DNA of 64,000 bases from Patescibacteria group bacterium (GCA_041660565.1 JBAZWC010000002.1:287484-351483), one strand, 5' to 3'; shown: positions 5,316 to 40,446, counted from the first letter of the stretch. Notes: generated by a model not told the origin, from the letters alone. Program-made: numbers and translations.

Positions 5316-5348
5316 TATAGATTCTGGGTCAAGCCCGGGATGACAATC
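5316..5348. repeat. Palindromic repeat family B, copy B1
   Basis: TATAGATTCTGGGTCAAGCCCGGGATGACA, near-identical to B2 at 40413. Confidence 0.8.
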
Positions 5349-5389
5349 TATCCTAATCACCATATCTTTGCTATATTTAGGGTGGAGAT

Positions 5390-6886
5390 ATGATGAAAAA
5401 GTTTTTTATCACCACCCCAATTTATTACGTTAATGATGTGCCGCACCTTGGGCACCTTTACACCACTTTAGCGGGTGATATTTTGGCGCGCCATTATCGT
5501 TTAACGGGGCGCGAGGTTTATTTTTTAACCGGCACCGATGAACATGGCTCCAAAATCGCCGAGGCAGCCGAAAAACATAATCAATCACCACAGGCCTTTG
5601 TAGATAACATTTCAGAGCAGTTTAAGCAGGTGTGGCAAAAGTACGACATCACTTTTGATCGATTTATTCGCACTACCGAAGAAGAGCACGTTAAAGTGGT
5701 CCAACAATTTCTGACCGATTTGCAGGCTCGTGGATATATTTATAAGGGCGAGTATTCCGGTTTGTATTGCCGTGGTTGCGAGGAGTACAAAAAAACATCA
5801 GATTTGGTTGATGGGCTTTGCCCGGTGCACCAGCGCGCTCCCGAATCTTTGGCTGAGCCGGCCTATTTTTTCAAATTGTCCGCTTTCGCCGATCAGATTT
5901 CTAGTTTAATCGATTCGCGTCAGTTGGAAATTCAGCCGGAGTCACGCCGCAACGAAGTACTATCATTCTTATCTAGCGGTTTAGAAGATGTGGCCATTTC
6001 GCGCCAAAACGTCGAATGGGGCATCCCGCTGCCTTGGGATCAGTCTCATACTATTTACGTGTGGATTGACGCCTTAATTAACTATTATACCGCGGGTCTT
6101 AAAGTAGACTGTTGGCCGGCAGACTGGCATTTAATGTCTAAAGACATTTTGCGATTTCACTGCGTTATTTGGCCGGCAATGCTGCTGGCGCTTGAGTTAG
6201 ACTTGCCAAAATCAATTTTCATTCACGGCTATTTTACGGTTGATGGTCAAAAGATGAGTAAGAGTTTAGGCAACGTGGTTAACCCTCTCGAAATGCTGCA
6301 GAAATATGATCGTGATGTAATTCGGGTCTTCCTTTTCAAATCGTTTCCGTTTGGTGCCGATGGTGATTTTTCGTGGGAGTTACTTGATCGATTTTATAAC
6401 GGCCAGTTGGCTAACGAGTTGGGCAATTTGGTACAGCGCGTGTTGGTGATGGCGGACAAATATTGTGACGGGATAGTGCCAAAGGGTGGCGGGTCGGTTT
6501 TGTCTGAGTTGACGCTGGATTTTGTTCAAAATACCCGCAAAGACATCGAAAAATTAGCTTTTGGCGATGCCCTGAATCATATTTTTAGTTTAATTCAGTT
6601 GGCCAATCGTCATATTGATAATATTAAATTATGGGATAAATCGAACGAACAAGCATTCATCAACCAAGGCATCGCGGAGTTGATCGAATTAATTAGGCAT
6701 CTTTCAATTGCGCTTTTGCCGATTATGCCCGATACCGCCCACAAAATTGCGCATTCACTTAATTTTGATCTTAAAAACAGTTATACTAAAGATGAATACG
6801 AAACAATAATAAGGTGGGGAAACTATCTTGAAGGGCGCAAGATTGTGGTGCCTGAGGTGCTGTTTCCACGAAGAGGAGAAAGTTGA
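5390..6886 (+). CDS. metG: Methionine--tRNA ligase (short form lacking C-terminal extension)
   Basis: Class I HIGH motif PHLGHLYT and a KMSKS motif. Length is 498 aa. Confidence 0.9.
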   Translation: MMKKFFITTPIYYVNDVPHLGHLYTTLAGDILARHYRLTGREVYFLTGTDEHGSKIAEAAEKHNQSPQAFVDNISEQFKQVWQKYDITFDRFIRTTEEEHVKVVQQFLTDLQARGYIYKGEYSGLYCRGCEEYKKTSDLVDGLCPVHQRAPESLAEPAYFFKLSAFADQISSLIDSRQLEIQPESRRNEVLSFLSSGLEDVAISRQNVEWGIPLPWDQSHTIYVWIDALINYYTAGLKVDCWPADWHLMSKDILRFHCVIWPAMLLALELDLPKSIFIHGYFTVDGQKMSKSLGNVVNPLEMLQKYDRDVIRVFLFKSFPFGADGDFSWELLDRFYNGQLANELGNLVQRVLVMADKYCDGIVPKGGGSVLSELTLDFVQNTRKDIEKLAFGDALNHIFSLIQLANRHIDNIKLWDKSNEQAFINQGIAELIELIRHLSIALLPIMPDTAHKIAHSLNFDLKNSYTKDEYETIIRWGNYLEGRKIVVPEVLFPRRGES

Positions 6887-7731
6887 TTGTCGGAATTTTA
6901 GCGGCCATTGGGTTTGCCGGTGGGGTTTTAGTTGATAAATACGAGCTTTCTAAGCGTCGGATACCGGTGCGTACCTACGTTCCGTTGATGTTCTTAACTT
7001 TGTGTTTATTTACCGGCATTGCGCTGGTTATTTTTCAACAACCAATTATGCAATATGGTACATCACTAAACTTCTCTTATGTTTTTGCATTTCTAGCGAT
7101 GATTTTGGTGGCGCTGGCTTGGAATCTGTTTTACTATCGCGCCCTAATGAAAGAGTCACTGCAAGAATTTGACCTAATTTTACTCACCGAGCCGCTAATT
7201 ACTATCGCAATGGCCGGGCTGTTATTTAGAAGTGAGCGTAATGCCACGGTGCTGCTACTGGCGTTAATCGCCTCAATTACCCTAGTGATTGCGCATATGC
7301 GTCGCAAAAAAATTAAATTTGACCATTATGCCAAAGAACTTATTTTAGCGATTTTCCTAATGTCGCTTGAAGTGATGATTATTCGCTATCTACTTGAAGT
7401 ATTTTCACCGATTGGGTTATATTTCTTGCGTACTTTTGTGGTCTATCTATTGGTAACGGCAATTTATAAGCCGAATTATAAAACCGTTAAGCATGCGGAT
7501 GCGGCTGCTATTGCTTTGACTGCCGGTTTTGGGGTAATGCAGATGGTGCTTCGGTATTACGGATATGAAATGGGTGGTGTGGTTATTACTACCTTAATGC
7601 TTTTGCTTGGGCCGTTGATTGTGGAAATGGTAAGCGTAAGCTTGTTAAAAGAAAAGGTGAATATTAAAACCGTCTCGGCTTTTATTGTTATTGCTGCCTG
7701 CGTGCTGTTCGCTTCAGTTCTTGGAACGTGA
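6883..7731 (+). CDS. Polytopic membrane protein, unknown function
   Basis: About 8-9 predicted hydrophobic helices. Start overlaps the metG stop and end overlaps the tatD start (operon). Confidence 0.6.
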   Translation: MIVGILAAIGFAGGVLVDKYELSKRRIPVRTYVPLMFLTLCLFTGIALVIFQQPIMQYGTSLNFSYVFAFLAMILVALAWNLFYYRALMKESLQEFDLILLTEPLITIAMAGLLFRSERNATVLLLALIASITLVIAHMRRKKIKFDHYAKELILAIFLMSLEVMIIRYLLEVFSPIGLYFLRTFVVYLLVTAIYKPNYKTVKHADAAAIALTAGFGVMQMVLRYYGYEMGGVVITTLMLLLGPLIVEMVSVSLLKEKVNIKTVSAFIVIAACVLFASVLGT

Positions 7732-8480
7732 TGATTGACACACATACTCATTTGAATTTTATTGATTTTGAGCCCGATCTTTCTGACGTGTTGTCACGGA
7801 TGAAAGACGCTGGGGTAATTTCTGCGATTGTGGTAGGCACGGATGATGAATCAAATATCAGTGCAATCAATTTAGCCAATCAGTATGAACAGTTGTATGC
7901 CGCGATTGGCATACATCCCTCAGACGTTAAAGGTGATTTTGACATATCTGATCTAAAAAATCTGACCAAGTCCCCAAAAGTGGTGGCTATTGGCGAAGTG
8001 GGGTTAGATTATTCATATGATGTTGACCATGGTTTACAGGCTAGGGCGTTTGAGGAATTTATGGCATTATCCGCGCAATCAAACTTGCCGTTAATTATTC
8101 ATTGTCGAGATGCTATGGACGATCTAATTACAGTTTTGTCTAAGTCGAACCAAGTTACCGGCGTAGTGCATTGTTTTACCGGTACATTAGCACAAGCGAA
8201 CCGTCTGATAGCGCTCGGATTGCATATTTCGTTTACCGGAATGATTACCTATCCAAAGAACGAGGAGCTCCGTCAAGTAATATTAAATCTGCCACACGAC
8301 AAAGTGTTGGTAGAGACTGATTGCCCGTTTTTGCCGCCACAATCCAAAAGAGGGAAGAGGTGCGAGCCGAAAGACATGGTAGAAGTGGCTGCCGCCATTG
8401 GACAAATATGGGATAAAAATGTAGAATATGTTGACAAGGTAACTTCTGACAATGCTAGGCGGTTATTTAAGATCAAATAA
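7728..8480 (+). CDS. tatD: TatD-family metal-dependent DNase/hydrolase
   Basis: MMIDTHTHLNF N-terminus, about 250 aa, TIM-barrel hydrolase pattern. Confidence 0.88.
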   Translation: MMIDTHTHLNFIDFEPDLSDVLSRMKDAGVISAIVVGTDDESNISAINLANQYEQLYAAIGIHPSDVKGDFDISDLKNLTKSPKVVAIGEVGLDYSYDVDHGLQARAFEEFMALSAQSNLPLIIHCRDAMDDLITVLSKSNQVTGVVHCFTGTLAQANRLIALGLHISFTGMITYPKNEELRQVILNLPHDKVLVETDCPFLPPQSKRGKRCEPKDMVEVAAAIGQIWDKNVEYVDKVTSDNARRLFKIK

Positions 8481-8506
8481 CAATACATCGATGGACGAGG
8501 TATAAC

Positions 8507-8543
8507 GAAAATTTTAAATTTTAAATTTTTAATTTTAAAAATT
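8507..8543. repeat. AT-rich repeat family F (F2)
   Basis: GAAAATTTTAAATTTTAAATTTTTAATTTTAAAAATT, about 30 nt near-identical to F8 at 38296. Confidence 0.7.
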
Positions 8544-8795
8544 ATGAATAAATATTTAACAAAACAATCTGCGGTTAACCAAATAGAAATGGTTCTGGAC
8601 CAAATCCGGCCGGCGTTACAAAATCATGGTGGAAACGTCGAAGTGGTTGGATTTGACAATGGAGTGGTGAAGGTAAAATTGACCGGGCATTGTCACGATT
8701 GTCTTATTTCGACCGTAACGCTCAAACTAGGAATCGAACGTGCTTTATGCGCCAATCTACCAAATTTGGTGAAAAAAGTAATTGAGGTAAAATGA
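8544..8795 (+). CDS. NifU/Nfu-like Fe-S cluster scaffold domain protein
   Basis: Nfu-type CxxC motif GHCHDC. Length is 83 aa. Confidence 0.75.
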   Translation: MNKYLTKQSAVNQIEMVLDQIRPALQNHGGNVEVVGFDNGVVKVKLTGHCHDCLISTVTLKLGIERALCANLPNLVKKVIEVK

Positions 8796-9619
8796 CAGCA
8801 AAATTATTATTAGGTCAGCCTGTTGCAGATCAGATTTACGCTGACATAAAATTTAAATTGACCCATTTACCCAGACCGGTGCATATTGCCGCTATTTTGA
8901 TTGGCGACGATATGGGGTCGGTAACTTATTTACGAATGAAAGAGAAGCGATGTGCCGAGTTGGGGATAGGTTTTACTTTGGTCAAATTGGCTCAAGACAT
9001 TAAGACCTCTAAAGTTGAATCCGAAATAAGTAAGCTAAACGCTGATGAAAAAATTACTGGCGTTATAGTCCAATTGCCGCTACCAAAACATTTAGATCAA
9101 GATTATCTACTTAAACAAATCAATCCCAAAAAAGATATTGATGCATTTGGCTATTTGAATTCATCTGACGCTAAAAATCAGATCGTATATCCGCCAACGC
9201 CAACCGGAATGCTGAAGTTATGCGAATTTTATGATATCGACCTGAAAAATCAAAAAATCGTGGTCATTGGCGATGGATTATTAGTCGGGCTACCACTACA
9301 TCGAATGTTGTGCGACCTTGGGTTTGGTTCTATGCTGATCAACAATAGCGATGCGCCTCAGTCTAGAAAAGACATTATTGAAGCCGATGTGATTTTTTGT
9401 GGTGTGGGCAAGGCAGATTTAATTACGCCAGAGATGATCAAAAATGGTGTGGTCATAATTGATGCTGGTTATTCTAAAGTAAGTGGGCAAACTCGTGGCG
9501 ACGCTGATCCGGAATGTGAGAAGAAAGCATCGGCAATAACTCCGCCTGTCGGAGGTGTTGGGCCATTAACTGTCGCGTGCTTACTATTAAATGCAGTCAA
9601 ACTTGTAGAAATAAAGTGA
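8792..9619 (+). CDS. folD: Bifunctional methylenetetrahydrofolate dehydrogenase/cyclohydrolase
   Basis: YLRMKEKRCAELGIGF and GVIVQLPLP motifs, 275 aa. Confidence 0.9.
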   Translation: MTAKLLLGQPVADQIYADIKFKLTHLPRPVHIAAILIGDDMGSVTYLRMKEKRCAELGIGFTLVKLAQDIKTSKVESEISKLNADEKITGVIVQLPLPKHLDQDYLLKQINPKKDIDAFGYLNSSDAKNQIVYPPTPTGMLKLCEFYDIDLKNQKIVVIGDGLLVGLPLHRMLCDLGFGSMLINNSDAPQSRKDIIEADVIFCGVGKADLITPEMIKNGVVIIDAGYSKVSGQTRGDADPECEKKASAITPPVGGVGPLTVACLLLNAVKLVEIK

Positions 9620-9630
9620 ATTTTATGAGC

Positions 9631-9755
9631 TGTCATTTCGACTCCTCGAGCGTTGTCTCGAGGGTGGAGAAATCTTTCAAAAAGACGGGAATGGATTCTT
9701 TCTTGAGATTTCTCCGACACAGTCGATCTGCGGCTCTCCTAGGGTCGAAATGACA
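9631..9755. repeat. Palindromic repeat family A, full copy A2
   Basis: TGTCATTTCGACTCCTCG..GGAGAAATCT..AGATTTCTCC..GGGTCGAAATGACA. The terminal ATG of the repeat is the mnmA start codon. Confidence 0.85.
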
Positions 9756-16167: not shown

Positions 16168-16575
16168 GTGGACAAGCTGCTAGATTGGTTAGAAAAGTAT
16201 CGAGTGGTGATGGGAGGGGTGATCGCCGTTGTTATTGTCGGCATTGGTGGATTGCTGATTTGGTACGACAGGCATCCAAACACCACCACCATTTCTACGC
16301 GCACGTTAGTGAGTCAAACTACAGTACCGGCGAGTGGGGCGGAAATTACCACAACATCCGCCAAATCTAACTCCAGTTTGATCAACATTAACACGGCAAA
16401 TGCCGAGCAGTTAGACAGTTTGCCCGGGATTGGGGCAACATACGCTCAGCGGATAATTGATTATCGCGTTGCGCATGGTAACTACAAAACAACTCACGAT
16501 TTAGTTTTAGTTAAGGGAATTGGTGAAGGTACGTACACTAAATTGAAAGATTTAGTGACAACAGGAGGGGAATAG
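16168..16575 (+). CDS. comEA: Competence protein ComEA (helix-hairpin-helix DNA-binding)
   Basis: N-terminal TM helix and C-terminal HhH motifs INTANAEQLDSLPGIGATYAQRII..LVLVKGIGEGT. Confidence 0.85.
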   Translation: MDKLLDWLEKYRVVMGGVIAVVIVGIGGLLIWYDRHPNTTTISTRTLVSQTTVPASGAEITTTSAKSNSSLININTANAEQLDSLPGIGATYAQRIIDYRVAHGNYKTTHDLVLVKGIGEGTYTKLKDLVTTGGE

Positions 16576-16578
16576 TAT

Positions 16579-16664
16579 GCGGATGTGGTGGAATGGCAGA
16601 CACGATAGCTTTAGGAGCTATTGGAGGAAACTCCGTGGAGGTTCAAGTCCTCTCATCCGCACCA
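16579..16664 (+). tRNA. tRNA-Leu (anticodon TAG), long variable arm
   Basis: Acceptor GCGGATG/CATCCGC, anticodon loop TTTAGGA, T-arm GGTTCAAGTCC, 3' CCA. Confidence 0.8.
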
Positions 16665-16666
16665 TA

Positions 16667-17002
16667 GTGTTGGTACCATTTATTTCAACTTTTATTTCAT
16701 CTCAAATTCATTTGGCGTTTGCCGCCTCACCTAGTGCGTCTGCGGTAGTGAGTTCGTCCAGCAACTTGCTTGGGGCGACCAGTTTAAGTGATTGGGTGAC
16801 CAAATTTGTTACTTGGGCTACAACTATCGGTATTTCGGTGGCCGCATTGATGATTTTGTACGCTGGAGTGGAGTATATCAACTCGGGCGGGAATGAAACA
16901 AAAATTAAAGGTGCCAAAGATCGGGTGATTGGCACGCTACTTGGGATCATAATTTTGTTACTAATTGGCACAATAATGAGAGTTTTACTCAAAACGAGCT
17001 AG
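16667..17002 (+). CDS. Small secreted two-helix (pilin/VirB2-TrbC-like) protein
   Basis: A GTG/TTG start directly after the tRNA. Signal-peptide-like N-terminus (..LAFA|AS), then two hydrophobic helices separated by a NSGGNETKIKGAKDR loop. The ORF-track start at 16577 would overlap the tRNA and is rejected. Confidence 0.5.
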   Translation: MLVPFISTFISSQIHLAFAASPSASAVVSSSSNLLGATSLSDWVTKFVTWATTIGISVAALMILYAGVEYINSGGNETKIKGAKDRVIGTLLGIIILLLIGTIMRVLLKTS

Positions 17003-20829: not shown

Positions 20830-21420
20830 TTATGGTTTCACGCCGTAAACATTGATTGCTTGCTCGTAAATATCGTCAGCAACCTCATCAAAATTTAAGC
20901 TCTCGGTATGATACATAATTTTGGGCAAGGTGCTGTCGTGATAAAGCGCCAACAGTTTATATTGATACATTTTATACCACTCCACGGCGTTGTCCTCGCT
21001 TTGCCCGCGTCGTTTTAGCTCTTCTTGCCACTTGGTTTCATGAAGCGCTTTAGAGTACAGTAAGCGTTGCTTAATTATATCTTCGGGTACTTGCAATAGC
21101 ACTAGCATTGGATTGTATTCGCGAATTACTTTTTCAATTTCAACCAAGTCGGCCGGTGATCCGTTAGTAATATTTAGGTGATAAAGATGGAATCGGCAAC
21201 AAATGGTCACTTTTTTATCAGACGAGCACTCTTTTTTTAAGAACGCGGTAAGTTGCGCGATACTGTTTTTCGGATCAGGGTGCGTGTAGGTTTCAGGTGA
21301 AATCCTTTTTGACTCGTCAAAAACTTCGCATGATACGCCCCGACTTTTGAATTTTTCACCAAGAACTTTAATTACATCAGTCTTGCCACTGGTTGGTATG
21401 CCTTCAAGAATAATAATCAT
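20830..21420 (-). CDS. P-loop nucleoside/nucleotide kinase-like protein
   Basis: Walker A ILEGIPTSGKTD, about 196 aa, typical of the dNK/thymidylate-kinase-like fold. Confidence 0.6.
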   Translation of the reverse strand: MIIILEGIPTSGKTDVIKVLGEKFKSRGVSCEVFDESKRISPETYTHPDPKNSIAQLTAFLKKECSSDKKVTICCRFHLYHLNITNGSPADLVEIEKVIREYNPMLVLLQVPEDIIKQRLLYSKALHETKWQEELKRRGQSEDNAVEWYKMYQYKLLALYHDSTLPKIMYHTESLNFDEVADDIYEQAINVYGVKP

Positions 21421-21469
21421 ATGCTTTCTCCTAATCCAAGCATATCAAATTTTTGTGTCATCAACTAAA

Positions 21470-21913
21470 TTATTTCGTTAGATTGTCGCTTTGGTGAGTT
21501 CGAGTAGAGTGGTGGCGATGGCGTTTGACTACATTAATGCGGTTTAAGTTGCGCTCTAATAATGCGGCGGCGTGAGCAAATTCAACATCGTTTTTAGCCT
21601 TGTCTTGCAAAGAGGTGGCTGCTTTAACAGCGGCCTCGGCGGCGGCCAGATCAATTGAATCAACGTGCTCGGCGCGATCCGCCATAACTGTGACGGTTTT
21701 GTCGGTAATTTCGGCCACACCGCCAAAAACAGAGAAATGATTGGTTTTGTTGCTGGAATGAGTGGTAATTTCGCCGGTTTTAATCATTGTAATTAAATTA
21801 ACGTGATTTGGTAGCACGCCAATTTCACCGAGTGTGGTCGGTAATAATACTTCGTCAACTTCGAACTCATCAACGACGCGGTCTTGGCTAATTAGGGAGA
21901 AGGTGATGGACAT
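21470..21913 (-). CDS. atpC: F1 ATP synthase epsilon subunit
   Basis: Last gene of the atp operon. N-terminal beta-sandwich sequence LLPTTLGEIGVLPNH. Confidence 0.85.
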   Translation of the reverse strand: MSITFSLISQDRVVDEFEVDEVLLPTTLGEIGVLPNHVNLITMIKTGEITTHSSNKTNHFSVFGGVAEITDKTVTVMADRAEHVDSIDLAAAEAAVKAATSLQDKAKNDVEFAHAAALLERNLNRINVVKRHRHHSTRTHQSDNLTK

Positions 21914-21954
21914 TGGGTCCTTAATTTACAATTTGAAATAGTGGGAGATCTTTC

Positions 21955-21990
21955 ATAGACTGGATTCCCGCCTTCGCGGGAATGACTACC
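21955..21990. repeat. Palindromic repeat family B (variant stem), copy B4, inside the atp operon
   Basis: CATAGACTGGATTCCCGCCTTCGCGGGAATGACTAC. Stem TTCCCGC/GCGGGAA with compensatory changes relative to B1-B3. Confidence 0.8.
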
Positions 21991-21995
21991 ACTGA

Positions 21996-23381
<1,386 letters not shown>

Positions 23382-28749: not shown

Positions 28750-30288
28750 ATGGCGATATCACGCGTAAATTCGGTGGTAATTCAGGGGCTAGATGGTATC
28801 AGCATCATCGTCGAAGTTGATCTTGGCTTAGGTCTGCCTAAATTTAGCATTGTCGGTTTGCCCGATAAAGCGGTAGATGAAGCAAAAGAACGTACTAAAT
28901 CTGCACTCAAAAATTCAAACATCCCATTTCCGCAACATTTGGTGACGGTTAATTTGGCGCCAGCCGATGTTAAGAAGTCCGGTACCGGTTACGATCTGCC
29001 GATTGCTTTGGGGATCGCCGTAGGATTAGAACAAGTGGAGCAATCCGCACTAGAAAACGCTGGGTTTATCGGTGAATTGTCTTTAAGTGGTGATATTAAG
29101 CCGGTTTCGGGCATTTTGCCGGCCACCATGCATGTGCGTGACTTGGGTTGGAAATCGCTTTATGTGCCTTCTGCAAACGGGGCAGAGGCGGCCATTATTG
29201 ATGGTATTGATATTTATCCGGTGGAAAGTCTACGGCAATTAATTTTACATTTGCGCGGTGAAAAGCTAATCAAACCACTACCCCAAACCGAGTGGCAAGG
29301 GCAAGTGGACAAAGCAGTTTATACCGATATGTCATCCATTCGCGGGCAAAATCAGGCCAAGCGATCATTAGAAATTGCTGCGTCTGGTGGTCATAACGTG
29401 TTGATGAGCGGGCCTCCGGGAAGTGGCAAAACCATGCTGGCCAAAGCGTTTGCTGGCATTTTGCCTACCATGACTAAAAACGAAGTGTTTGAAGTGACCA
29501 AAATTTACAGTGTGGCTGGTTTGCTAACCGCCGACGAGCCGATTATGTTACGCCGACCTTTTCGTTCCCCGCACCACACCAGTAGCACTATTTCTTTGAT
29601 TGGCGGAGGGCAATGGCCCAAGCCGGGGGAGATAAGCCTTGCCCATCGAGGTGTGCTGTTTTTAGATGAATTTCCCGAGTTTCCCAGAAGTGCTTTGGAA
29701 AGTTTGCGCCAGCCACTGGAAGATGGCACCGTTTCGATATCTCGAGCTAACGGCTCGGTGCATTTTCCGGCTAAGTTTATTTTGTTGGCAACTCAAAATC
29801 CTTGCCCGTGTGGTTATTTGCACGACACCATCAAGCGTTGCCGTTGCTCGCAAACCGAGATAAAGCGTTATCACCAACGCTTGTCTGGCCCGCTTTTGGA
29901 TCGCATTGACTTGCATATTACCGTGCCACGAGTTGAAGTGGATGATTTAAGTAATGCCGGCAACGGAGAGACGACCGAAAGTATCCGTCTGCGCGTTGAA
30001 AAAGCGCGTAAAATTCAGTCGGTGCGTTTTGAAGGCACAAAGATAGTCTCGAACGCGGAAATGGGAGTTAAAATGATCGATCAGTTTTGTGTGCTCGATG
30101 TAGCGTCTCGAAATTTATTAAACAAGGCGGTGGAAAGGTACGGTTTATCGGCTCGGTCATATCATCGTATCATTAAGGTTGCCAGAACCATTGCTGATCT
30201 GTCTGGAGAGGAAAACATCCAACAAAACCACATTGCTGAAAGTCTGCAATTTAGAGAAAGCTCTCAGGATGAGGAAAATATTAGATAA
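28750..30288 (+). CDS. comM: YifB/ComM-family Mg-chelatase-like AAA+ ATPase
   Basis: Walker A SGPPGSGKTML and Walker B VLFLDEF. N-terminal Lon-like ChlI domain, 512 aa. Confidence 0.88.
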   Translation: MAISRVNSVVIQGLDGISIIVEVDLGLGLPKFSIVGLPDKAVDEAKERTKSALKNSNIPFPQHLVTVNLAPADVKKSGTGYDLPIALGIAVGLEQVEQSALENAGFIGELSLSGDIKPVSGILPATMHVRDLGWKSLYVPSANGAEAAIIDGIDIYPVESLRQLILHLRGEKLIKPLPQTEWQGQVDKAVYTDMSSIRGQNQAKRSLEIAASGGHNVLMSGPPGSGKTMLAKAFAGILPTMTKNEVFEVTKIYSVAGLLTADEPIMLRRPFRSPHHTSSTISLIGGGQWPKPGEISLAHRGVLFLDEFPEFPRSALESLRQPLEDGTVSISRANGSVHFPAKFILLATQNPCPCGYLHDTIKRCRCSQTEIKRYHQRLSGPLLDRIDLHITVPRVEVDDLSNAGNGETTESIRLRVEKARKIQSVRFEGTKIVSNAEMGVKMIDQFCVLDVASRNLLNKAVERYGLSARSYHRIIKVARTIADLSGEENIQQNHIAESLQFRESSQDEENIR

Positions 30289-30407: not shown

Positions 30408-30487
30408 TATAGACTGGATTCCCGCTCTTCGAGCCTGAGCCTGAGGGCTTATCCCTCAGAGTCGAATGACCTGCGCGGGAATGACAG
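30408..30487. repeat. Palindromic repeat family B, copy B5, with a nested palindromic insert
   Basis: TATAGACTGGATTCCCGC[TCTTCGAGCCTGAGCCTGAGGGCTTATCCCTCAGAGTCGAATGACCT]GCGCGGGAATGACAG. Confidence 0.8.
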
Positions 30488-30492: not shown

Positions 30493-30804
30493 CTAGTTAT
30501 TTATATGTAAAAACTGGCTAAAGCTGTTGCTAAAGTGCTGCAAATAGTCAGTTTTTGCGTTTACTATGACCGTGGCCACTAAAATAATTATTAATAAGCC
30601 AAATACAAAACCAACTCGGCGTAGCTCTTTAACTACTAACGTAGATGAGTGGCTAAGCGAAGATTCTGGCTCAACAACGGGTTTTGCAGCGATTGTAACT
30701 GTTTCGGATACGGTTGGAATTTGATCGGGTTGGCTAATAGGAATGGTGGAAACTGGGGCCGAAACTGTTTTTTTGAAAAACTTTTTCTTATGTTTTTTTG
30801 ACAT
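30493..30804 (-). CDS. Small membrane protein with a basic N-terminus and C-terminal TM helix
   Basis: MSKKHKKKFFKK.. then GFVFGLLIIILVATVIV. Length is 103 aa. Confidence 0.55.
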   Translation of the reverse strand: MSKKHKKKFFKKTVSAPVSTIPISQPDQIPTVSETVTIAAKPVVEPESSLSHSSTLVVKELRRVGFVFGLLIIILVATVIVNAKTDYLQHFSNSFSQFLHINN

Positions 30805-32923: not shown

Positions 32924-32930
32924 ACCGCCA

Positions 32931-33013
32931 ATTTTCTATTTTTATTTTAAAATTTTAAAACATTTGGAAATTCATTTAAAATTTATAATTTATACTTTAA
33001 AATTTAAGTGCTT
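32931..33013. repeat. AT-rich repeat family F (F7) upstream of tRNA-Leu
   Basis: tttattttaaaattttaaaacatttggaaattcatttaaaatttataatttatactttaaaatttaagtgcttgggg. Preceded by the hairpin CCAGGCGGTAAACCGCC at the SBP gene stop. Confidence 0.6.
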
Positions 33014-33099
33014 GGGGATGTGGTGAAATGGCAGACACGCAGCGTTCAGGTCGCTGTGAGCGCAAGCTCGTGGAGGTTCAACTCCTCTCATCCCCACCA
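33014..33099 (+). tRNA. tRNA-Leu (anticodon CAG), long variable arm
   Basis: Acceptor GGGGATG/CATCCCC, anticodon loop TTCAGGT, T-arm GGTTCAACTCC, 3' ACCA. Confidence 0.8.
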
Positions 33100-33215
33100 T
33101 TCGACTCTCCGCCGGTCGGCGGATCGCTCACGTTCGACACCGCTACGCGGTGCTCAGGGCCTGAGTGTAATCGAAGGCATGGTCTACGACCCTGAGCTGA
33201 AGAAGTAAGGCGAAT

Positions 33216-33245
33216 GCCCTGAGAATTGTAGAGGGGCTTTTTTGT
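33216..33245 (+). terminator. Hairpin plus T-run just inside island I3
   Basis: GCCCTGAGAATTGTAGAGGGGC followed by TTTTTT. It follows a 9-codon mini-ORF (ATGGTCTACGACCCTGAGCTGAAGAAGTAA). Confidence 0.45.
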
Positions 33246-33316
33246 TGTCAAAATATCGACAAAACATAAATAATATGATAATATAATGCCAACTCGCGCG
33301 AAAGGGGGACGGATGA

Positions 33317-33850
33317 ATGCGCGTTTTGGTGGTACCAAGCAGTGGCATGGTCCCGGTTGATCAGCTTGGACCAGACACGCTGATGCGCTGCGAAAAAGCG
33401 CTTGAGCTGTGGCGGACGGGACAGTTTGGCTGCCTGGTGGTTACCGGCGGTCGGTGTCACCCGTCATACGTGGAGACACGGTCGGCTGCGGAATCGATGC
33501 AAGTGTGGTTCGATTTCGGCCGAGTTCCGCTGTCATGCATTCTGGTAGAGCCGGAGGCCAAGGACACCTTCGGAAACGCGATCAGCACCGTGGCGGGGCT
33601 TCAGCATTGGGGGATCGACACAGACAACATCACAGTGGTCAGTCACTGGTTGCACTGTGTTCGGCTCCGGATCACCTTCCGACTAGCCTGTAGGGTTCGG
33701 GTCAAGACGGTGCCGCTTTACTACCCAATCGGGTGGAAGGGCGCGTTTGCCGAGGTCGCGATGATCTGCTACCACGTGCTTGATCGGAAAGGGAATGGCT
33801 GGATTGCCCGGCGCAACCGCGCCAAGCGAACATTCTCGAAACCATCCTGA
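33317..33850 (+). CDS. DUF218/YdcF (SanA/ElyC)-like protein on GC-rich island I3
   Basis: LVVTGG and EAKDTFGNA motifs of the DUF218 family. RBS AAGGGGGA. GC-rich codons. Confidence 0.65.
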   Translation: MRVLVVPSSGMVPVDQLGPDTLMRCEKALELWRTGQFGCLVVTGGRCHPSYVETRSAAESMQVWFDFGRVPLSCILVEPEAKDTFGNAISTVAGLQHWGIDTDNITVVSHWLHCVRLRITFRLACRVRVKTVPLYYPIGWKGAFAEVAMICYHVLDRKGNGWIARRNRAKRTFSKPS

Positions 33851-33856
33851 TGTAGA

Positions 33857-34318
33857 ATGGAGGAGTCGATGTGCGACAAGTACGTATATCTCGCAGGGCC
33901 GATTGCGGGGCAGACTTACGACCAGAGCAACGACTGGCGTATCAATACCGGTGACCGGCTCAGAGAACTTGGGATGGTTCCGCTTTCACCGATGCGAGGG
34001 AAAGACCCGCAAGCGTTTGTTCCGGGGTTTGACCGTGAATCCACGCCGCTGACCTCCGCCCGTGGCATCAAGGCTCGTGATAAGTATGATGTGCACCGAT
34101 CATCGGCAGTCCTGGCCAACTTCCTTGGGGCCACGGACAAGTCTATCGGCACAGCGTGCGAATTCAGTTGGGCTGATGACGCCGGGGTGCCGGTCATCGC
34201 TGTCATGGAGCCATCGGGTAATCCGAATGATCACCCGTTCATTCGAGAAACCGCGTTCTGCGTGGTCACAACTCTTGGTGAGGCGATCGAGGTTCTCAGA
34301 TGGATCGTGCTTCCATGA
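33857..34318 (+). CDS. Nucleoside 2-deoxyribosyltransferase-like protein on GC-rich island I3
   Basis: YLAGPIAG signature of the NDT/Rcl fold. RBS GGAGGAG. Start is 7 nt after the upstream stop. Confidence 0.7.
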   Translation: MEESMCDKYVYLAGPIAGQTYDQSNDWRINTGDRLRELGMVPLSPMRGKDPQAFVPGFDRESTPLTSARGIKARDKYDVHRSSAVLANFLGATDKSIGTACEFSWADDAGVPVIAVMEPSGNPNDHPFIRETAFCVVTTLGEAIEVLRWIVLP

Positions 34319-34333
34319 CAACGAACCGTCACT

Positions 34334-34366
34334 GCCGGGGCTTAACCGCCCCGGCTATTATTTTTC
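34334..34366 (+). terminator. Intrinsic terminator closing island I3
   Basis: GCCGGGGCTTAACCGCCCCGGC followed by TATTATTTTT. Confidence 0.7.
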
Positions 34367-34435
34367 GTTGACTTTTGGTGCTGAATCACGTAATATAAAA
34401 GATAGCCGAGATGGATGGCCAGTTTTTTGTTATTT

Positions 34436-34521
34436 GGGATCGTGGTGGAATTGGCATACACAACAGGTTGAGGGCCTGTGGGAGAAATCCCGTGAGGGTT
34501 CAAGTCCCTCCGATCCCACCA
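34436..34521 (+). tRNA. tRNA-Leu (anticodon GAG), long variable arm
   Basis: Acceptor GGGATCG/CGATCCC, anticodon loop TTGAGGG, T-arm GGTTCAAGTCC, 3' ACCA. Confidence 0.8.
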
Positions 34522-34950: not shown

Positions 34951-35334
34951 ATGTCCACATTTTTCCCGCCAATAGATGGTACGAGTGCGCAATATGGCAC
35001 CATTTGGATCGTATTACTTCTTGCAACCGCGCTTTTAATTGGGCTATGGTGGTTCATGCACAAAGCAGTGATGCGAACATCAATATTACGTTATCTATCT
35101 ACAGTAGTGGTAATGGGGTTCATTGTTTACTGGTTTAGGTTCGAAAACGTAATGTACTTTACCGCAGATTGGATTATCTGGTTGTGGGTTGCGGTGGTGG
35201 CAATTGGCTTGCTCTGGTTGTTGTCGATCCGCCTGATAAAAGTGCCCAAAGTTAAAGCTAAACAATCAGTAGTAGATACCAAAACAAAATACCTTCCGAA
35301 ATCAAAAAATACAAAGCCAAGGATTAAAAAATAA
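34951..35334 (+). CDS. Membrane protein, unknown function (three TM helices, lysine-rich tail)
   Basis: RBS GGAG before ATG 34951. Hydrophobic helices. Confidence 0.6.
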   Translation: MSTFFPPIDGTSAQYGTIWIVLLLATALLIGLWWFMHKAVMRTSILRYLSTVVVMGFIVYWFRFENVMYFTADWIIWLWVAVVAIGLLWLLSIRLIKVPKVKAKQSVVDTKTKYLPKSKNTKPRIKK

Positions 35335-35343
35335 ATCAGTAAA

Positions 35344-35466
35344 TGTCATTTCGACCCTCGGAGAGCGTCAGCTCGACGGTGTTGGAGAAATCTTAAAAAG
35401 AATCCCTTCCAGTCTTTCTTGAGATCTCTCCAACCTCTCGACAAAGCTCGAGGGGTCGAGATGACA
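35344..35466. repeat. Palindromic repeat family A, full copy A3
   Basis: TGTCATTTCGACCCTCGG..GGAGAAATCTTAAAAAG..AGATCTCTCC..GAGGGGTCGAGATGACA. Confidence 0.85.
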
Positions 35467-35524
35467 ATTATCGGATCATAAAAATTATAAACAAAAATCA
35501 AACAAGAAATAGTTTAGGAGAACA

Positions 35525-36760: not shown

Positions 36761-36769
36761 AGAGGTAAT

Positions 36770-37258
36770 ATGATTATTACGCGCAATTCTGAACATGCTT
36801 TAGAGTTTAAGACCAAAGAAGCGGCGATTAAAGTAAACACAGACGTGGTTATTAACGATGTAAAGATAGCTGGCCCGGGTGAATACGATGTGGCAAAGGT
36901 TTCGGTGATTGGGTTTCCTACAAAAACGCAGACGGTTTACCTGTTGGCTGTGGACGATGTTACAGTGTGCTATTTTTCCGTCAAACCGGAAAAATTGGCC
37001 ACCGATGTAATTGAAAAGATGGGTAATGTTGAGATGCTTGTGGTTACGCTTTGTGCAGACACAACTCCAGAGGAAGTGGTTAACTTAATTAACGCGCTTG
37101 AGCCGAACGTAGTGATGCCAATTGGTGATAAAGGTGCGGTGGAAAAATTAATGCAGACATCTGGGGCAGATAACACCGAGATTGATTCTTATAAAATTAC
37201 CAAATCCACCTTACCGGCTGACGACCGACAAATGATCGTACTCAAGTCGGGTAGATAA
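36770..37258 (+). CDS. Hypothetical protein
   Basis: Tightly follows rpsA. 162 aa, no recognisable motifs. Confidence 0.55.
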   Translation: MIITRNSEHALEFKTKEAAIKVNTDVVINDVKIAGPGEYDVAKVSVIGFPTKTQTVYLLAVDDVTVCYFSVKPEKLATDVIEKMGNVEMLVVTLCADTTPEEVVNLINALEPNVVMPIGDKGAVEKLMQTSGADNTEIDSYKITKSTLPADDRQMIVLKSGR

Positions 37259-37277
37259 TAGAGGATGGAATATGGAT

Positions 37278-37313
37278 CCGTAGGGGTGGACTCATATGTC
37301 CGCCCGTTTGTGG
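37278..37313. repeat. Palindromic repeat family C, copy C3
   Basis: CCGTAGGGGTGGACTCATATGTCCGCCCGTTTGTGG. Confidence 0.85.
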
Positions 37314-37322
37314 AGAGGCCTG

Positions 37323-38291
37323 ATGTTCAGCCCCGATCTAAGTAAATCTCTAAAAGACATTATCGCAAATTCACCTCGAGTTTTGCTGATTTGTCATGAA
37401 AAACCGGATGGTGACGCGATCTCGTCATTACTAGCAACTCGGTTAATGTTATTTGGCCTGAATTGTTTGGACGTGCAAATGGTCAGTATAGATGGCGTGC
37501 CAAAGGCGTTTGAGTTTTTACCTGATTCAAATTTGATAAAATCCGATTTTTTACGAGGTGATTTTGAAGTCATTATTACTTTGGACTGTGGCGACTTTAA
37601 ACGCACCGGATACTCTGATCGCATAGCTAAGATGATCGAAAAGGGCACCAAATTAATTAACATAGATCATCACCCTAAAAACGATATTTTTCGGATTGCA
37701 CACCTAAATTTAAGCGATACAACATGCGCCTCAACCACGCAAATAATCTATCAACTTTGCCAGTTTTTTCATCTCAAATTAGATGTCAAATTAGCAACTT
37801 TGTTATTTGTTGGGCTTTACACCGACACGGGTGGTTTTCAGCACATCGTAACGTCGCCGGAAGTGATGCGTATGGCGGCCGAGCTGGTCTCTAGCGGCGC
37901 GCAAACCAGGCTGATCAGCCAATACCTAACCGGCACCAAATCTTCGGCGCAATTAAAGTTGTGGGGGCGAGTGATTAGCCGAGCACGAGTAAGTAAGGAT
38001 GGGGTAGTGGTTGCGGGGGTAACTCAATCAGATTTGAAAGCAGTTGGCGCTAACGAGGAGGACGTAGCGGGGCTGTTAACGATGCTAGAGACCCTAGACC
38101 AGTGTAAAATGGCGATATTGTTATGTGAAACCGCGGATGGTGTGATTAAAGGTAGTTTGCGCTCTAACAACAGCCAAATTGATGTTTCTAAAATTGCCAG
38201 ATATTTTGGGGGCGGTGGGCACGTTAAGGCGGCCGGATTCACTCTTCCAGGGAAACTGGTTATAGACAAGCACAGCGTAAGCGTGGTATAA
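37323..38291 (+). CDS. nrnA: DHH/DHHA1 phosphoesterase, NrnA-like
   Basis: DHH motif LICHEKPDGDAISS and DHHA1 GGGGH motif YFGGGGHVKAAG. The ORF-track start at 37296 lies within repeat C3; ATG 37323 is more likely. Confidence 0.8.
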   Translation: MFSPDLSKSLKDIIANSPRVLLICHEKPDGDAISSLLATRLMLFGLNCLDVQMVSIDGVPKAFEFLPDSNLIKSDFLRGDFEVIITLDCGDFKRTGYSDRIAKMIEKGTKLINIDHHPKNDIFRIAHLNLSDTTCASTTQIIYQLCQFFHLKLDVKLATLLFVGLYTDTGGFQHIVTSPEVMRMAAELVSSGAQTRLISQYLTGTKSSAQLKLWGRVISRARVSKDGVVVAGVTQSDLKAVGANEEDVAGLLTMLETLDQCKMAILLCETADGVIKGSLRSNNSQIDVSKIARYFGGGGHVKAAGFTLPGKLVIDKHSVSVV

Positions 38292-38295
38292 TAAG

Positions 38296-38348
38296 ACAAA
38301 ATTCTAAATTTTAAATTTTTAATTTTAAAATAATTGGAATTTGTTTTT
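38296..38348. repeat. AT-rich repeat family F (F8)
   Basis: AAAATTCTAAATTTTAAATTTTTAATTTTAAAATAATTGGAATTTG. Confidence 0.7.
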
Positions 38349-38349
38349 G

Positions 38350-38374
38350 CCCAGGTGGTGGAATGGCATACAAT
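38350..38374 (+). pseudogene. Duplicated 5' fragment of tRNA-Leu, left boundary of the HNH insertion
   Basis: GCCCAGGTGGTGGAATGGCATACAA versus GCCCGGGTGGTGAAATTGGCATACAC of the intact tRNA-Leu at 38896. No tRNA body follows. Confidence 0.6.
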
Positions 38375-38420
38375 AATAACGATCATTGCAAACACCTCTG
38401 CCATATGCCATAATTGATTT

Positions 38421-38888
38421 ATGAAAGATAAATCGTGGACAGAAGCACAATTAAGGTCAGCCGCCCAAGAATCTCGAAGTATCCGTCAGATTTTACAGAG
38501 ACTTGGATTAGCAGAGGCGGGCGGAAATTACGCTCAGATTAAAAAATATTTGCACATTTACAATATCAATATGGAAAATATTAAAGGTAAATCTTGGTGC
38601 AAAGGGTTGAATGTCGAAGGACATCCAAGAGTGCAGTTAGATCAATTATTGGTAGAAAACAGTAGTTTCCAAAGTTACAAGCTAAAAAATCGACTTTTCA
38701 ATTCGGGGTTAAAGCCCAGAAAATGTGAAGAATGTGGGTGGTCAAAAATAACGCCAAGCGGTCATTTGCCTTTAGAAATACATCATATCAATGGGGATCG
38801 GTCTGATAACAGAATAAATAATTTAGTCATTCTGTGTCCCAACTGTCATAGTCAAAAGCCGAATTATCGTGGTAGGCGAAGAGATTAG
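38421..38888 (+). CDS. HNH homing-endonuclease-like protein
   Basis: HNH zinc-finger core CEECGW..HLPLEIHHINGDRSDNRINNLVILCPNCH. Confidence 0.8.
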   Translation: MKDKSWTEAQLRSAAQESRSIRQILQRLGLAEAGGNYAQIKKYLHIYNINMENIKGKSWCKGLNVEGHPRVQLDQLLVENSSFQSYKLKNRLFNSGLKPRKCEECGWSKITPSGHLPLEIHHINGDRSDNRINNLVILCPNCHSQKPNYRGRRRD

Positions 38889-38895
38889 TAAATAA

Positions 38896-38980
38896 GCCCG
38901 GGTGGTGAAATTGGCATACACGCGACACTTAAAATGTCGTTTCGAAAGAATTGCGGGTTCGAGTCCCGCCCTGGGCACCA
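38896..38980 (+). tRNA. tRNA-Leu (anticodon TAA), long variable arm
   Basis: Acceptor GCCCGGG/CCTGGGC, anticodon loop CTTAAAA, T-arm GGTTCGAGTCC, 3' ACCA. Confidence 0.82.
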
Positions 38981-38995
38981 AAAATTGCAGCATAC

Positions 38996-39030
38996 CCTCG
39001 TCATTCCGGGCTTGACCCGGAATCTATGTA
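38996..39030. repeat. Palindromic repeat family B, copy B3 (inverted orientation)
   Basis: CCTCGTCATTCCGGGCTTGACCCGGAATCTATGTA. Confidence 0.8.
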
Positions 39031-39041
39031 AAAAGAAAAAA

Positions 39042-39386
39042 ATGAATAAATATACCGGCACTATCGTTGAAGAGTCACTAGACGACAATCGGCTTATAAA
39101 TGAATTTAATATCTTAAATACTCGTATTTCCGGGGCAGAAAATCCTGCCGACCGCTGGCACTTATATAAAGTCGATGCAACTAAAGAGCAGCTTGAGGAG
39201 CTATCAAAACATATTAAACCGCAAAAGTGGTATGCTCATTTTTGGTGTGACGACGAGATGATAGTAGTTTTCCGAGATAAAATGTTTGATCAAAAAGTTA
39301 ATGATAAAAATACTTGGGAGCCAGCAATTAGATACGGGCTCTCTCACGGTATCCCAATAAAACAGCTTGATTTTGTTGTTGAGTGA
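39042..39386 (+). CDS. Hypothetical protein
   Basis: ATG 39042 after repeat B3. The ORF-track start at 38934 would overlap the tRNA and is rejected. Confidence 0.55.
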   Translation: MNKYTGTIVEESLDDNRLINEFNILNTRISGAENPADRWHLYKVDATKEQLEELSKHIKPQKWYAHFWCDDEMIVVFRDKMFDQKVNDKNTWEPAIRYGLSHGIPIKQLDFVVE

Positions 39387-39393
39387 AAAATAA

Positions 39394-39978
39394 ATGATTG
39401 AAGTTGAGAAGAAGTTTAAATTAAGCGGGCAAGACATTGAACGGCTAACCAGGGATGCCGAGTTTTTGAAAGAGCGGACTTTTACTGACATTTATTTTGA
39501 CGATGAAAAATATTCTCTAACCTCGAACGATAAATGGTTGCGTGCGCGAGATGGCCTTTATGAACTAAAATTGCCAATGCATGCGGGGGTGGATAGAAAA
39601 GCAGACCAGTACGATGAAATTGAAGATGAACAAAAGATTCGCGAAGTGCTAAATATCCCCACCGACCAGAAAATTGACGAAATTTATGCACCATTTTGCA
39701 ATGTCACCACTACGCGCAAAAAATATAAAAAAGATCAATTTATTATTGATTTAGACGATGTCGATTACGGTGATTTTAAGTATTCGCTTGGTGAGATTGA
39801 ACTATTAGTAAATAATCAGTCAGATATTGAAAAAGCAATTGCGGAAATTATGGATTTTGCGAATAAGTATCAATTGTCCGTCGCAATGGTTCGTGGAAAA
39901 GTAATTGAATATCTAAAACAAGTTAAACCGGAACATTATCAAGCTCTAATTAAAGCCAAAGTAGTGAAAGATTTCTGA
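39394..39978 (+). CDS. CYTH-domain protein (CyaB-like/triphosphatase fold)
   Basis: N-terminal EVEKKF motif, plus YFDD and LRAR..YELKLP motifs. Confidence 0.75.
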   Translation: MIEVEKKFKLSGQDIERLTRDAEFLKERTFTDIYFDDEKYSLTSNDKWLRARDGLYELKLPMHAGVDRKADQYDEIEDEQKIREVLNIPTDQKIDEIYAPFCNVTTTRKKYKKDQFIIDLDDVDYGDFKYSLGEIELLVNNQSDIEKAIAEIMDFANKYQLSVAMVRGKVIEYLKQVKPEHYQALIKAKVVKDF

Positions 39979-39985
39979 ATAGAGT

Positions 39986-40013
39986 GAATGCCCGTCCGAA
40001 GACGGGCATTTTG
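39986..40013 (+). terminator. Intrinsic terminator
   Basis: AATGCCCGTCCGAAGACGGGCATTTTGG. Confidence 0.7.
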
Positions 40014-40036
40014 GTGTGGCGGGTAGGCGCACTGGC

Positions 40037-40306
40037 CTACTCAGCGTTCTTGTTGGCAGGTACGATGCCAGAGCCGTCATAAGGCTCGATCTCGATGACG
40101 CCTGCAACGAATGCCTCGTCAGCCTTGGCGACGTTCCTGACAAATGTCCATTCACCGTCCGGGCCTTCGTGGAAACGCCCGATGATCGTACCAGTGTCTC
40201 GAACGCGATGGGGCAGCTTTCGTTCTGGCCCGTGGCCGTCCTGCATTCCAACGAGCGCATCAGTTTCCAACATGGCCGCAATTCCGGACAGACCCTCGTT
40301 CTCCAT
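40037..40306 (-). CDS. Hypothetical 89-aa protein on GC-rich micro-island I4
   Basis: RBS AAAGGAG 8 nt before the ATG (MENEGLSG..). GC content is visibly high. No motifs recognised. Confidence 0.55.
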   Translation of the reverse strand: MENEGLSGIAAMLETDALVGMQDGHGPERKLPHRVRDTGTIIGRFHEGPDGEWTFVRNVAKADEAFVAGVIEIEPYDGSGIVPANKNAE

Positions 40307-40412
40307 TGCTCGACTCCTTTGGTATCCGAATCGATGAAAAGATCGACAGGAGTGATTGCTTATCCTGCTATGCCGTGATCATATAATTATTTGTCTTGTG
40401 ATTCAAGCTATT

Positions 40413-40446
40413 TATATAGATTCCGGGTCGAGCCCGGAATGACAGC
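40413..40446. repeat. Palindromic repeat family B, copy B2
   Basis: TATATAGATTCCGGGTCGAGCCCGGAATGACAGC. Confidence 0.85.

Follow-up and report, generated by a model that had tools for sequence, protein, structure and literature searches.

The stretch of DNA considered here, called the window in what follows, comprises 64,000 nt of a Patescibacteria group bacterium (GCA_041660565.1 JBAZWC010000002.1:287484-351483) and belongs to a source contig of 374,447 bp. Between its genes, which include metG, an atp operon, yifB and several tRNA-Leu genes, are five copies of a short hairpin repeat that had been named "family B" in an initial annotation, and that are discussed here in relation to the hairpins cut by Ssn nucleases. 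All five copies are present where that annotation had placed them, every one of them is intergenic, and they fall into two types. Type I, with the core ATTCCGGG-TCRAG-CCCGGAAT, occurs three times (5318-5344, 39000-39026, which is inverted, and 40417-40443), and type II, TAGACTGGATTCCCGC...GCGGGAATGAC, occurs twice (21956-21986 and 30410-30485). The labels B1 to B5, by which the copies were known, do not follow the order of the coordinates: B4 is the copy at 21955 and B5 the copy at 30408.

The first copy (5318-5344, TAGATTCTGGGTCAAGCCCGGGATGAC) lies between a GC-rich open reading frame (ORF) of 136 aa, which is followed by a terminator, and metG (5390-6886). Read on the minus strand (5318-5345, TGTCATCCCGGGCTTGACCCAGAATCTA), it is a decayed SRM-like hairpin of type I, in whose arms, ATCCCGGG/CCCAGAAT, two of the eight stem pairs are broken, and as single-stranded DNA (ssDNA) it folds no better than shuffled sequences (-4.1 kcal/mol, z -1.5). 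The ssDNA folds of the four intact copies lie between -8.5 and -19.4 kcal/mol, with z between -3.3 and -4.8. The copy in the atpD-atpC spacer (21956-21986, TAGACTGGATTCCCGCCTTCGCGGGAATGAC), whose minus-strand reading at 21956-21987 is AGTCATTCCCGCGAAGGCGGGAATCCAGTCTA, folds with -9.4 kcal/mol (z -4.8). The composite element on the minus strand at 30410-30486 has the same arms, ATTCCCGC/GCGGGAAT, and a GCAG loop, with 45 nt of extra sequence enclosed between the arms (-19.4 kcal/mol, z -4.25); it is located in a 204-bp spacer between the convergent yifB (28750-30288) and an ORF of 103 aa (30493-30804, minus strand). The two remaining copies are intact SRM-like hairpins of type I. One of them, on the plus strand at 39000-39026 (GTCATTCCGGGCTTGACCCGGAATCTA), begins 19 nt past a tRNA-Leu(taa) gene (38896-38980) and points into a block of three genes (-8.5 kcal/mol, z -4.0), and the other, at 40417-40443 (TAGATTCCGGGTCGAGCCCGGAATGAC; minus-strand reading of 40417-40444, TGTCATTCCGGGCTCGACCCGGAATCTA), is inverted with respect to it and folds with -9.1 kcal/mol.

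Chance does not explain these copies, since the pattern GTCATTCCSGSN{4,5}SCSGGAATC matches three times in the window and 0.00 times in 100 dinucleotide-preserving shuffles. On the complementary strand all five copies share the frame 5'-GTC-A(T)TCCxGx-loop-xCxGGA(A)T-C-3', in which a GTC stands directly upstream and a C directly downstream of an 8-bp palindrome, the decayed copy included. The common ...ATGAC(A) end, which had been proposed as a recognition feature, is the GTCAT of this frame seen from the other strand, and the proposal agrees with the conservation of both flanks in five of five copies. The strand that carries the GTC...C reading, and would be the cleavable one, is the minus strand in four copies and the plus strand at 39000; cumulative GC skew rises throughout the window. 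Relative to the adjacent genes the copies lie in both orientations, one of them between convergent genes.

NTS/SRM hairpins, described in 2025, are bound and cut in ssDNA by small GIY-YIG nucleases named Ssn (Chenal et al., Nat Commun 16:2388, PMC11893778). The Neisseria Transformation Sequence (NTS) is CGTCATTCCCGCGMAVGCGGGAATCYRG and contains the dRS3 palindrome (ATTCCC-N8-GGGAAT); a variant, NTSvar, and a degenerate "Ssn-related motif" (SRM) have been published beside it (PMC11893778). SsnA is a single-domain GIY-YIG protein of 94 aa (cd10448), which binds the hairpin as ssDNA only and on one strand only, does not bind RNA, and cleaves a few nucleotides upstream of the hairpin (PMC11893778). 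The upstream GTC is the determinant of cleavage and the C downstream of the palindrome the main determinant of binding, while the loop of the NTS is dispensable (PMC11893778). Strand-specific binding and cleavage of ssDNA have been shown for N. meningitidis, N. elongata, N. wadsworthii and Wolbachia only (PMC11893778). In Neisseria, the system breaks up motif-bearing ssDNA that enters during transformation and reduces its integration, and deletion of ssnA in N. meningitidis increases transformation five-fold for NTS-bearing DNA only (PMC11893778). It is typical of ssn genes to have the motif on both sides, in an NTS-ssn-NTS layout (PMC11893778).

For membership in the NTS, the paper allows at most one mismatch to the consensus (PMC11893778). 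The hairpin at 21960-21987 on the minus strand falls within this limit and can be called a canonical NTS, since it agrees with the consensus at 27 of 28 positions (0.00 expected in shuffles), and the copy at 30408 also reaches 27/28 if its 45-nt insert is removed. The dRS3 palindrome is found at 21964-21983 (minus-strand ATTCCCGCGAAGGCGGGAAT). The three type I copies (ATTCCG...) neither fit dRS3 nor fall within one mismatch of the NTS, and yet they have the architecture of an SRM: like the type II copies they read GTC-A(T)T...AAT-C, with the hairpin palindrome, the GTC upstream and the C downstream, and four of the five copies fold significantly. The repeats also resemble the NTS/SRM in being multi-copy (five in 64 kb), dispersed, intergenic and directional. 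On the strength of the 27/28 match and of the conserved GTC/C flanks, family B is assigned to the NTS/SRM, and the probability that its five copies are hairpin repeats of this type, directional elements acting at the level of DNA and not RNA signals, which an Ssn-type nuclease would recognise as ssDNA, is put at roughly 0.75. Family B is real, but the NTS/SRM family has been known since 2025, and what is found here is a new host for a known element. The novelty is modest and consists of the Patescibacteria host, a stem subtype missed by the published pattern, a copy inside an operon and a nested composite.

The family extends far beyond the window. A scan with TAGAN{0,5}TTCCSGSN{4,6}SCSGGAATGAC against 185,579 species-representative genomes (596 Gb) returned at least 120 loci in many phyla, and the hairpins form a true dispersed family; a rough estimate that assumes uniform composition gives about 20 chance matches over this collection. 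The matches include Neisseria, Legionella, Coxiellaceae, Rickettsiales (Tisiphia) and many other Proteobacteria and, among those listed, also Bacteroidota, Fibrobacter, Planctomycetes, Verrucomicrobia, about 17 Dehalococcoidia, one metagenome-assembled genome (MAG) of Bathyarchaeota and at least 15 Patescibacteria MAGs. The type I core of the window, GTCATTCCGGGCTTGACCCGGAAT, has identical counterparts in Sphingomonadales, Syntrophaceae, Bacteroidales and other MAGs, and a gammaproteobacterial MAG (L105) contains the 31-nt type II sequence of the window without any difference.

The initial annotation had described two mutually compensatory versions of the stem. The two C:G to G:C swaps on which this rests are there, but the copy at 5316 reads TTCTGGG/CCCGGGA, with two broken pairs. 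A covariation analysis across genomes, made on 36 distinct cores, finds pairing in 99.3% of cells and, at two of the eight pairs, exchanges between C:G and G:C (16 and 8 rows); 0/500 shuffles attain the pairing or covariation score of the real cores, the other six stem pairs being fixed by the search pattern itself. The two free stem positions pair in 138 of the 138 matches listed, as CGC/GCG, GGC/GCC, GGG/CCC or CGG/CCG, and because they always pair, the hairpin structure is clearly required. A third compensatory stem, CCTGC/GCAGG, is found in a metagenome contig (L250). The further claim, that selection acts on the structure rather than the sequence, is not supported: the subtypes are near-invariant across phyla, and for N. 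meningitidis SsnA a change of the stem sequence that retained the hairpin abolished activity (PMC11893778). The loops are stereotyped as well, with GAAA, GAAG, GCAG or GTAG in CGC and GGC stems and CTTGA in the GGG stem. Since the sequence of each subtype, with its loop, is preserved from phylum to phylum, and since mutagenesis shows that the sequence is read too, the two stems are best seen as two widespread, imported subtypes and not as copies co-evolving within one genome. They may be served by different or by cross-reacting nucleases; a partial cross-specificity of Ssn nucleases has been reported (PMC11893778).

The type II stem recalls the dRS3 and Neisseria intergenic mosaic elements (NIMEs), with which the window shares the ATTCCC-N8-GGGAAT core at 21964-21983 and the mosaic nesting of small modules. 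In contrast to these, only the two CCCGC-type copies fit dRS3, one of them only if its insert is ignored, the window has no arrays of RS units between the hairpins, and the host belongs to another phylum. As dRS3 has been noted as the target of a specific phage recombinase in Neisseria (PMC11893778), and as several copies of the motif occur on some IMG/VR contigs, the family B hairpins could also be attachment sites at which an IS110/Piv-type element or a filamentous phage lands. This is very improbable. No transposase, recombinase or phage genes were detected among the approximately 60 ORFs of the window with Pfam and NCBIfam, which show housekeeping genes only, and the motif is matched by only 66 stretches in the 2.9 million viral contigs of IMG/VR, on which ground a viral origin of the family was rejected too. 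Moreover, attachment would account for a use of the hairpins, not for their origin or for the conservation of the GTC/C flanks.

A connection with the nuclease itself is visible at other loci. When the ORFs within 1.5 kb of the hairpins were clustered across the 120 listed loci, the largest cluster shared between loci was that of ORFs of about 94 aa, which lie 3-13 nt from the hairpin at four of them (L011, L042, L067 and L088). At a fifth locus with a GIY-YIG of about 94 aa adjoining the hairpin (L074), the same domain is buried in a longer, mechanically called ORF. The proteins of L011 and L042, the two that were scanned, match Pfam GIY-YIG, and L042 reproduces the published NTS-ssn-NTS layout with the same hairpin: a forward hairpin, 5 nt, an ATG...stop frame of 96 aa, 10 nt and an inverted hairpin. 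A profile built from four of the proteins of about 94 aa and searched against 5.8 billion proteins finds at least 8000 clusters, many of them on contigs shorter than 2 kb, as is expected for a gene bracketed by repeats. One metagenome contig (L221, 5870-11000; the same sequence in L238) carries three Ssn-like GIY-YIG genes within about 5 kb, of which that at 8393-8710 is bracketed by GTCATTCTGAACGAAGTGAAGAATC and GTCATCCTGAGC...GAAGGATC hairpins and that at 6020-6349 (minus strand) adjoins a cluster of nested modules.

The identity of this adjacent gene also bears on the idea that family B consists of REP/REPIN elements served by a RAYT, a domesticated Y1 transposase of the IS200/IS605 type. 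The two kinds of repeat look similar, as REP/BIME are likewise short intergenic palindromes with an oriented, asymmetric, conserved head and can sit inside operons, the window has one inverted pair (39000 and 40417), and the REPIN-RAYT systems have a single-copy gene for a small nuclease that is flanked by repeats and thought to act on ssDNA hairpins. However, the gene next to the hairpins in other genomes encodes a GIY-YIG fold and not the HUH/Y1 fold, the window has no Y1 transposase, the head is GTCAT and not the GTAG (CTAC) typical of REP, and REP are lineage-specific, whereas these hairpins are identical or nearly so across phyla. The idea is largely refuted by these differences and is scarcely credible.

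The copy in the atp operon, B4, lies between atpD (21996-23372) and atpC (21470-21913), both on the minus strand and identified with NCBIfam, in an 82-bp spacer, which confirms the placement given in the initial annotation. Its stem begins 13 nt past the stop codon of atpD; between the end of the stem and the start codon of atpC there are 50 nt (21914-21963), so that the ribosome-binding site of atpC stays free. It is transcribed in the sense orientation, and the fold of the spacer in the atp mRNA (-24 kcal/mol) indicates that a strong hairpin would form in RNA. These features, and the position of the stem so close to the stop codon, would suit an element that works in RNA as a stabiliser of mRNA, a processing site or an attenuator, with the atp copy tuning atpD against atpC in the manner of the REP hairpins of E. 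coli operons; an attenuator or a processed 3' end had indeed been envisaged for B4. Such a role is nevertheless improbable for the family. Although a G+C-rich stem-loop downstream of genes resembles a Rho-independent terminator, there is no T-run or terminator-like site in 21400-22100, Rfam recognises no family in the window besides tRNAs, and an intrinsic terminator or RNA attenuator was rejected for these reasons. Terminators also differ from the hairpins by lacking the asymmetric conserved flanks, and one copy stands in an operon whose downstream gene needs to be expressed. The occurrence of copies in both orientations relative to their neighbours, and of one between convergent genes, also argues against an RNA function, and the GTC/C flanks together with the identity across phyla point to recognition of DNA by a protein. 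In addition, SsnA does not bind RNA (PMC11893778), and a relative runs the same operon with a spacer of 5 bp. Any RNA effect of the atp hairpin would be incidental.

Relatives of the organism show how the spacers look without the repeats. Four syntenic relatives have the gene order yifB - histidine kinase - atpBEFHAGDC - miaA - ABC transporter in common with the window. In the three of them for which DNA is available, the atpD-atpC spacers measure 63, 5 and 48 bp and contain no hairpin, in contrast to the 82 bp found here, and on the side of yifB the spacer has 1-15 bp in syntenic relatives compared with 204 bp here. The comparison of filled and hairpin-free spacers indicates that each of the two type II copies is additional DNA in a spacer that is conserved otherwise. 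A scan of metagenome proteins with AtpC found no closer relatives with exact empty sites, and at the distance of the available ones target-site duplications, exact junctions and timing are not definable. In one syntenic relative (L126, 13630-13709), which has no hairpin in its atp spacer, two head-to-head hairpins, GTCATTCTGG...CCAGAATC, are found near miaA, and their outer stem resembles the decayed copy at 5318-5345. A contig of the same organism (L001, Logan SRR18595301) begins 67 nt upstream of atpC, inside the hairpin (window ~21980), where a break is expected if the k-mers of the hairpin are repeated in the sample.

With the biochemistry and transformation data taken from the Neisseria work (PMC11893778), and the membership, the cross-phylum family, the GIY-YIG linkage and the spacer differences taken from the present analysis, the following explanation can be proposed. 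Where the 5'-GTCAT...ATC-3' strand is exposed as ssDNA, it would form the 8-bp G+C-rich hairpin, and a nuclease of the Ssn family (about 94 aa, GIY-YIG, cd10448) would bind it by reading the stem sequence, the GTC upstream and the C downstream, and would nick the ssDNA a few nucleotides upstream of the hairpin. In this Patescibacteria genome a cognate nuclease would presumably act on the copies in the same role, cutting incoming or otherwise exposed ssDNA that bears the motif. The copies would be insertions into intergenic spacers, due either to mobilisation in trans by an ssn gene located elsewhere in the genome or to foreign DNA that brought them in, and the spread of the hairpins would be linked to ssn units; the two stem types would be pre-existing subtypes of the family, and the copy at 30408 an NTS with a second GTCAT-headed module beside its loop. 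Patescibacteria are believed to depend on taking up DNA. Genes for pili and competence are prevalent in them (PMC12455944), and an ORF of the window (16168-16575) has an HHH_3 domain, which is typical of ComEA.

Several observations weigh against this explanation or against the family assignment beneath it. No Ssn or GIY-YIG gene was found in the 64-kb window, either by a six-frame search with hidden Markov models or by the Pfam and NCBIfam scans, which covered essentially all ORFs, and none of the best 120 of the at least 8000 Ssn homologs lies on the source contig. The published SRM pattern, which was built manually (HGTCWYN(0-2)YYVSBRHN(0-5)WNVSBRGN(0-2)RNCYNB), matches only one of the five copies, that at 21956 (shuffle mean 0.13). 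The three copies that differ from the known motifs by their CCGGG/CCCGG stem and 5-nt loop, as well as the composite with its second hairpin module beside the loop, are putative Ssn targets. The published survey was made on RefSeq representative genomes, and its text does not mention Patescibacteria, the candidate phyla radiation group to which the host MAG belongs (PMC11893778). The density of copies is moderate, with five in 64 kb, one of them decayed, and at the 56-68% AtpC identity of the closest syntenic relatives the "empty sites" represent an insertion/deletion difference and not a dated insertion.

Some of these points would be accommodated if the copies were orphan relics, that is, NTS/SRM by descent, as in the explanation above, but carried as neutral passengers in a genome with no cognate Ssn, following horizontal transfer or the loss of ssn. 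The missing ssn in 64 kb and the decaying copy fit this account, of the genomes that have more than 200 SRMs only 81% possess an SsnA homolog (PMC11893778), and two of the copies adjoin small ORFs of about 58% G+C in a window of 44% G+C, which suggests imported DNA. On the other side, the hairpin is perfect in four of the five copies and agrees exactly with the cross-phylum consensus, which is unexpected after long neutral decay, and since the window represents about 17% of the source contig, little can be concluded from the lack of ssn in it. The account is plausible but, on balance, somewhat unlikely, and hairpins still open to an active nuclease are preferred here.

The composite at 30410-30486 gives a view of how the hairpins combine. 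A palindrome of 47 bp nested in the loop of B5 had been reported; the insert exists, but it has 45 nt and is a separate module (30426-30470, minus strand, GTCATTCGACTCTGAGGGATAAGCCCTCAGGCTCAGGCTCGAAGA) that lies between the 4-nt loop GCAG and the 3' arm, with the arms standing 49 nt apart. The module is unique in the window and folds on its own as ssDNA. Its first 30 nt recur in 69 metagenome stretches with unrelated flanks (L194-L262; groundwater, lake and sediment), which indicates that the insert is a discrete module, with the consensus GTCATTCGACTCTGAGGG-AYRAG-CCCTCAG-GCTCAGACTCGAAGA; one of these stretches belongs to a relative of this organism, on a contig of 1.04 Mb (L247 and L124). The combination of NTS and module can be written as GTCATTCC[CT]GC-N4-GTCATTCGAC, and in the unrelated metagenome contig L250 the module sits at the identical place inside another NTS, GTCATTCCTGC-GAAG-[module]-GCGGGAATCC. 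In five stretches (L218, L221, L238, L242 and L254) a further module, GACATTCGAC..., is nested inside the 45-nt module, and in L221 this nested cluster adjoins one of the three Ssn-like genes, while another of them has GTCATTCTGA.../GTCATCCTGAGC... hairpins on its two sides. Repeats of the CCTTCGACAA^GCTCAGGACAAG type often surround the 45-nt module. Outer stems of at least 5 bp surround it in about 11% of 56 contexts, compared with 3% in controls, and the notion that it always inserts into hairpin loops was rejected, as it is mostly embedded in other repeat modules.

A second group of repeats in the window, family A, comprises palindromic elements of about 123-125 bp that resemble miniature inverted-repeat transposable elements (9631-9755, 35344-35466 and 49150-49272, with a half copy at ~2855-2890). 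Their ends are terminal inverted repeats, TGTCATTTCGACCC, their centre is a GGAGAAATCT...AGATTTCTCC palindrome, and their pattern gives 19 matches at three or fewer mismatches, with 7.9 expected. Family A has a head, GTCATTTCGAC, that resembles the one of the 45-nt module at 30426-30470, and the two families, A and B, may therefore form one superfamily with GTCAT heads. The nesting of modules described above, in the window, in L250 and in the five further stretches, together with the Ssn-like gene beside the cluster in L221, may mean that GTCAT-headed hairpins are small, non-autonomous mobile ssDNA elements inserting next to and into one another; this is possible but rather unlikely.

With regard to the neighbourhood of the copies, the "GC-rich islands" that had been noted beside B1 and B2 are present, but they are small protein-coding ORFs of 136 aa (4853-5263, plus strand), downstream of which stands an intrinsic-terminator-like hairpin that has a T-run, and 89 aa (40037-40306, minus strand), each of which adjoins a hairpin copy. 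Together with a block at 33000-34500, which lies between two tRNA-Leu genes (33014-33099 and 34436-34521) and contains DUF218 and nucleoside 2-deoxyribosyltransferase-like genes, they make up three patches of 58-60% G+C in the 44% G+C window, which are candidates for horizontally acquired DNA. Between the two inverted, inward-pointing type I copies (39000-40444) lie the gene ORF114 (39042-39386), a CYTH-domain gene and the GC-rich ORF of 89 aa, in an arrangement that mirrors the NTS-gene-NTS layout of Neisseria, and ORF114 occupies the position that ssn has in canonical units. It was considered as an alternative partner and rejected, having no match to Pfam, NCBIfam or GIY-YIG, and its eight homologs occur in unrelated contexts without hairpins, which indicates that the block is not a conserved cassette. 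An HNH endonuclease gene (38421-38888, 155 aa) is directly upstream of the tRNA-Leu(taa) gene, which separates it from the hairpin. Its product has only a generic HNH domain (Pfam HNH and HNH_3), with weak matches to the HNH regions of the IscB and ZorE models of NCBIfam, and it may be a homing-type insertion, as the initial annotation suggested.

The hairpins also leave traces in gene calls. Read-through of a hairpin produces ORFs at 38934-39386 and 40391-41041 of the window, as well as in L074 and L088, and the resulting pseudo-peptides recur (...VIPGLTRNL..., RFRVEPGMT, MDSRFRGND and SFPRRRESI), so that false N-terminal extensions and spurious ORF starts can result. In genome annotation the hairpins likewise explain breaks of contigs. 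Apart from the hairpins, a tRNA-Leu(tag) gene (16579-16664) is contained in the 5' portion of a mechanically called ORF (16577-17002) whose T4SS-pilin domain starts at residue 67, which places the true start codon of the pilin downstream of the tRNA.

The assignment proposed here gives the flagged repeats a concrete and testable identity in a published nuclease-target system. It extends the NTS/SRM system to Patescibacteria and to many other uncultured lineages outside the RefSeq-based survey, and the published pattern would miss the three type I copies of the window. The mobility of the hairpins is an open question of the 2025 paper (PMC11893778), to which the nested composite and the filled versus empty spacers add modest new evidence. 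If Ssn GIY-YIG nucleases do move the hairpins, NTS-ssn-NTS units would represent a previously unrecognised class of GIY-YIG-driven transposons, which would have spread identical hairpins across phyla, the reduced genomes of Patescibacteria included.

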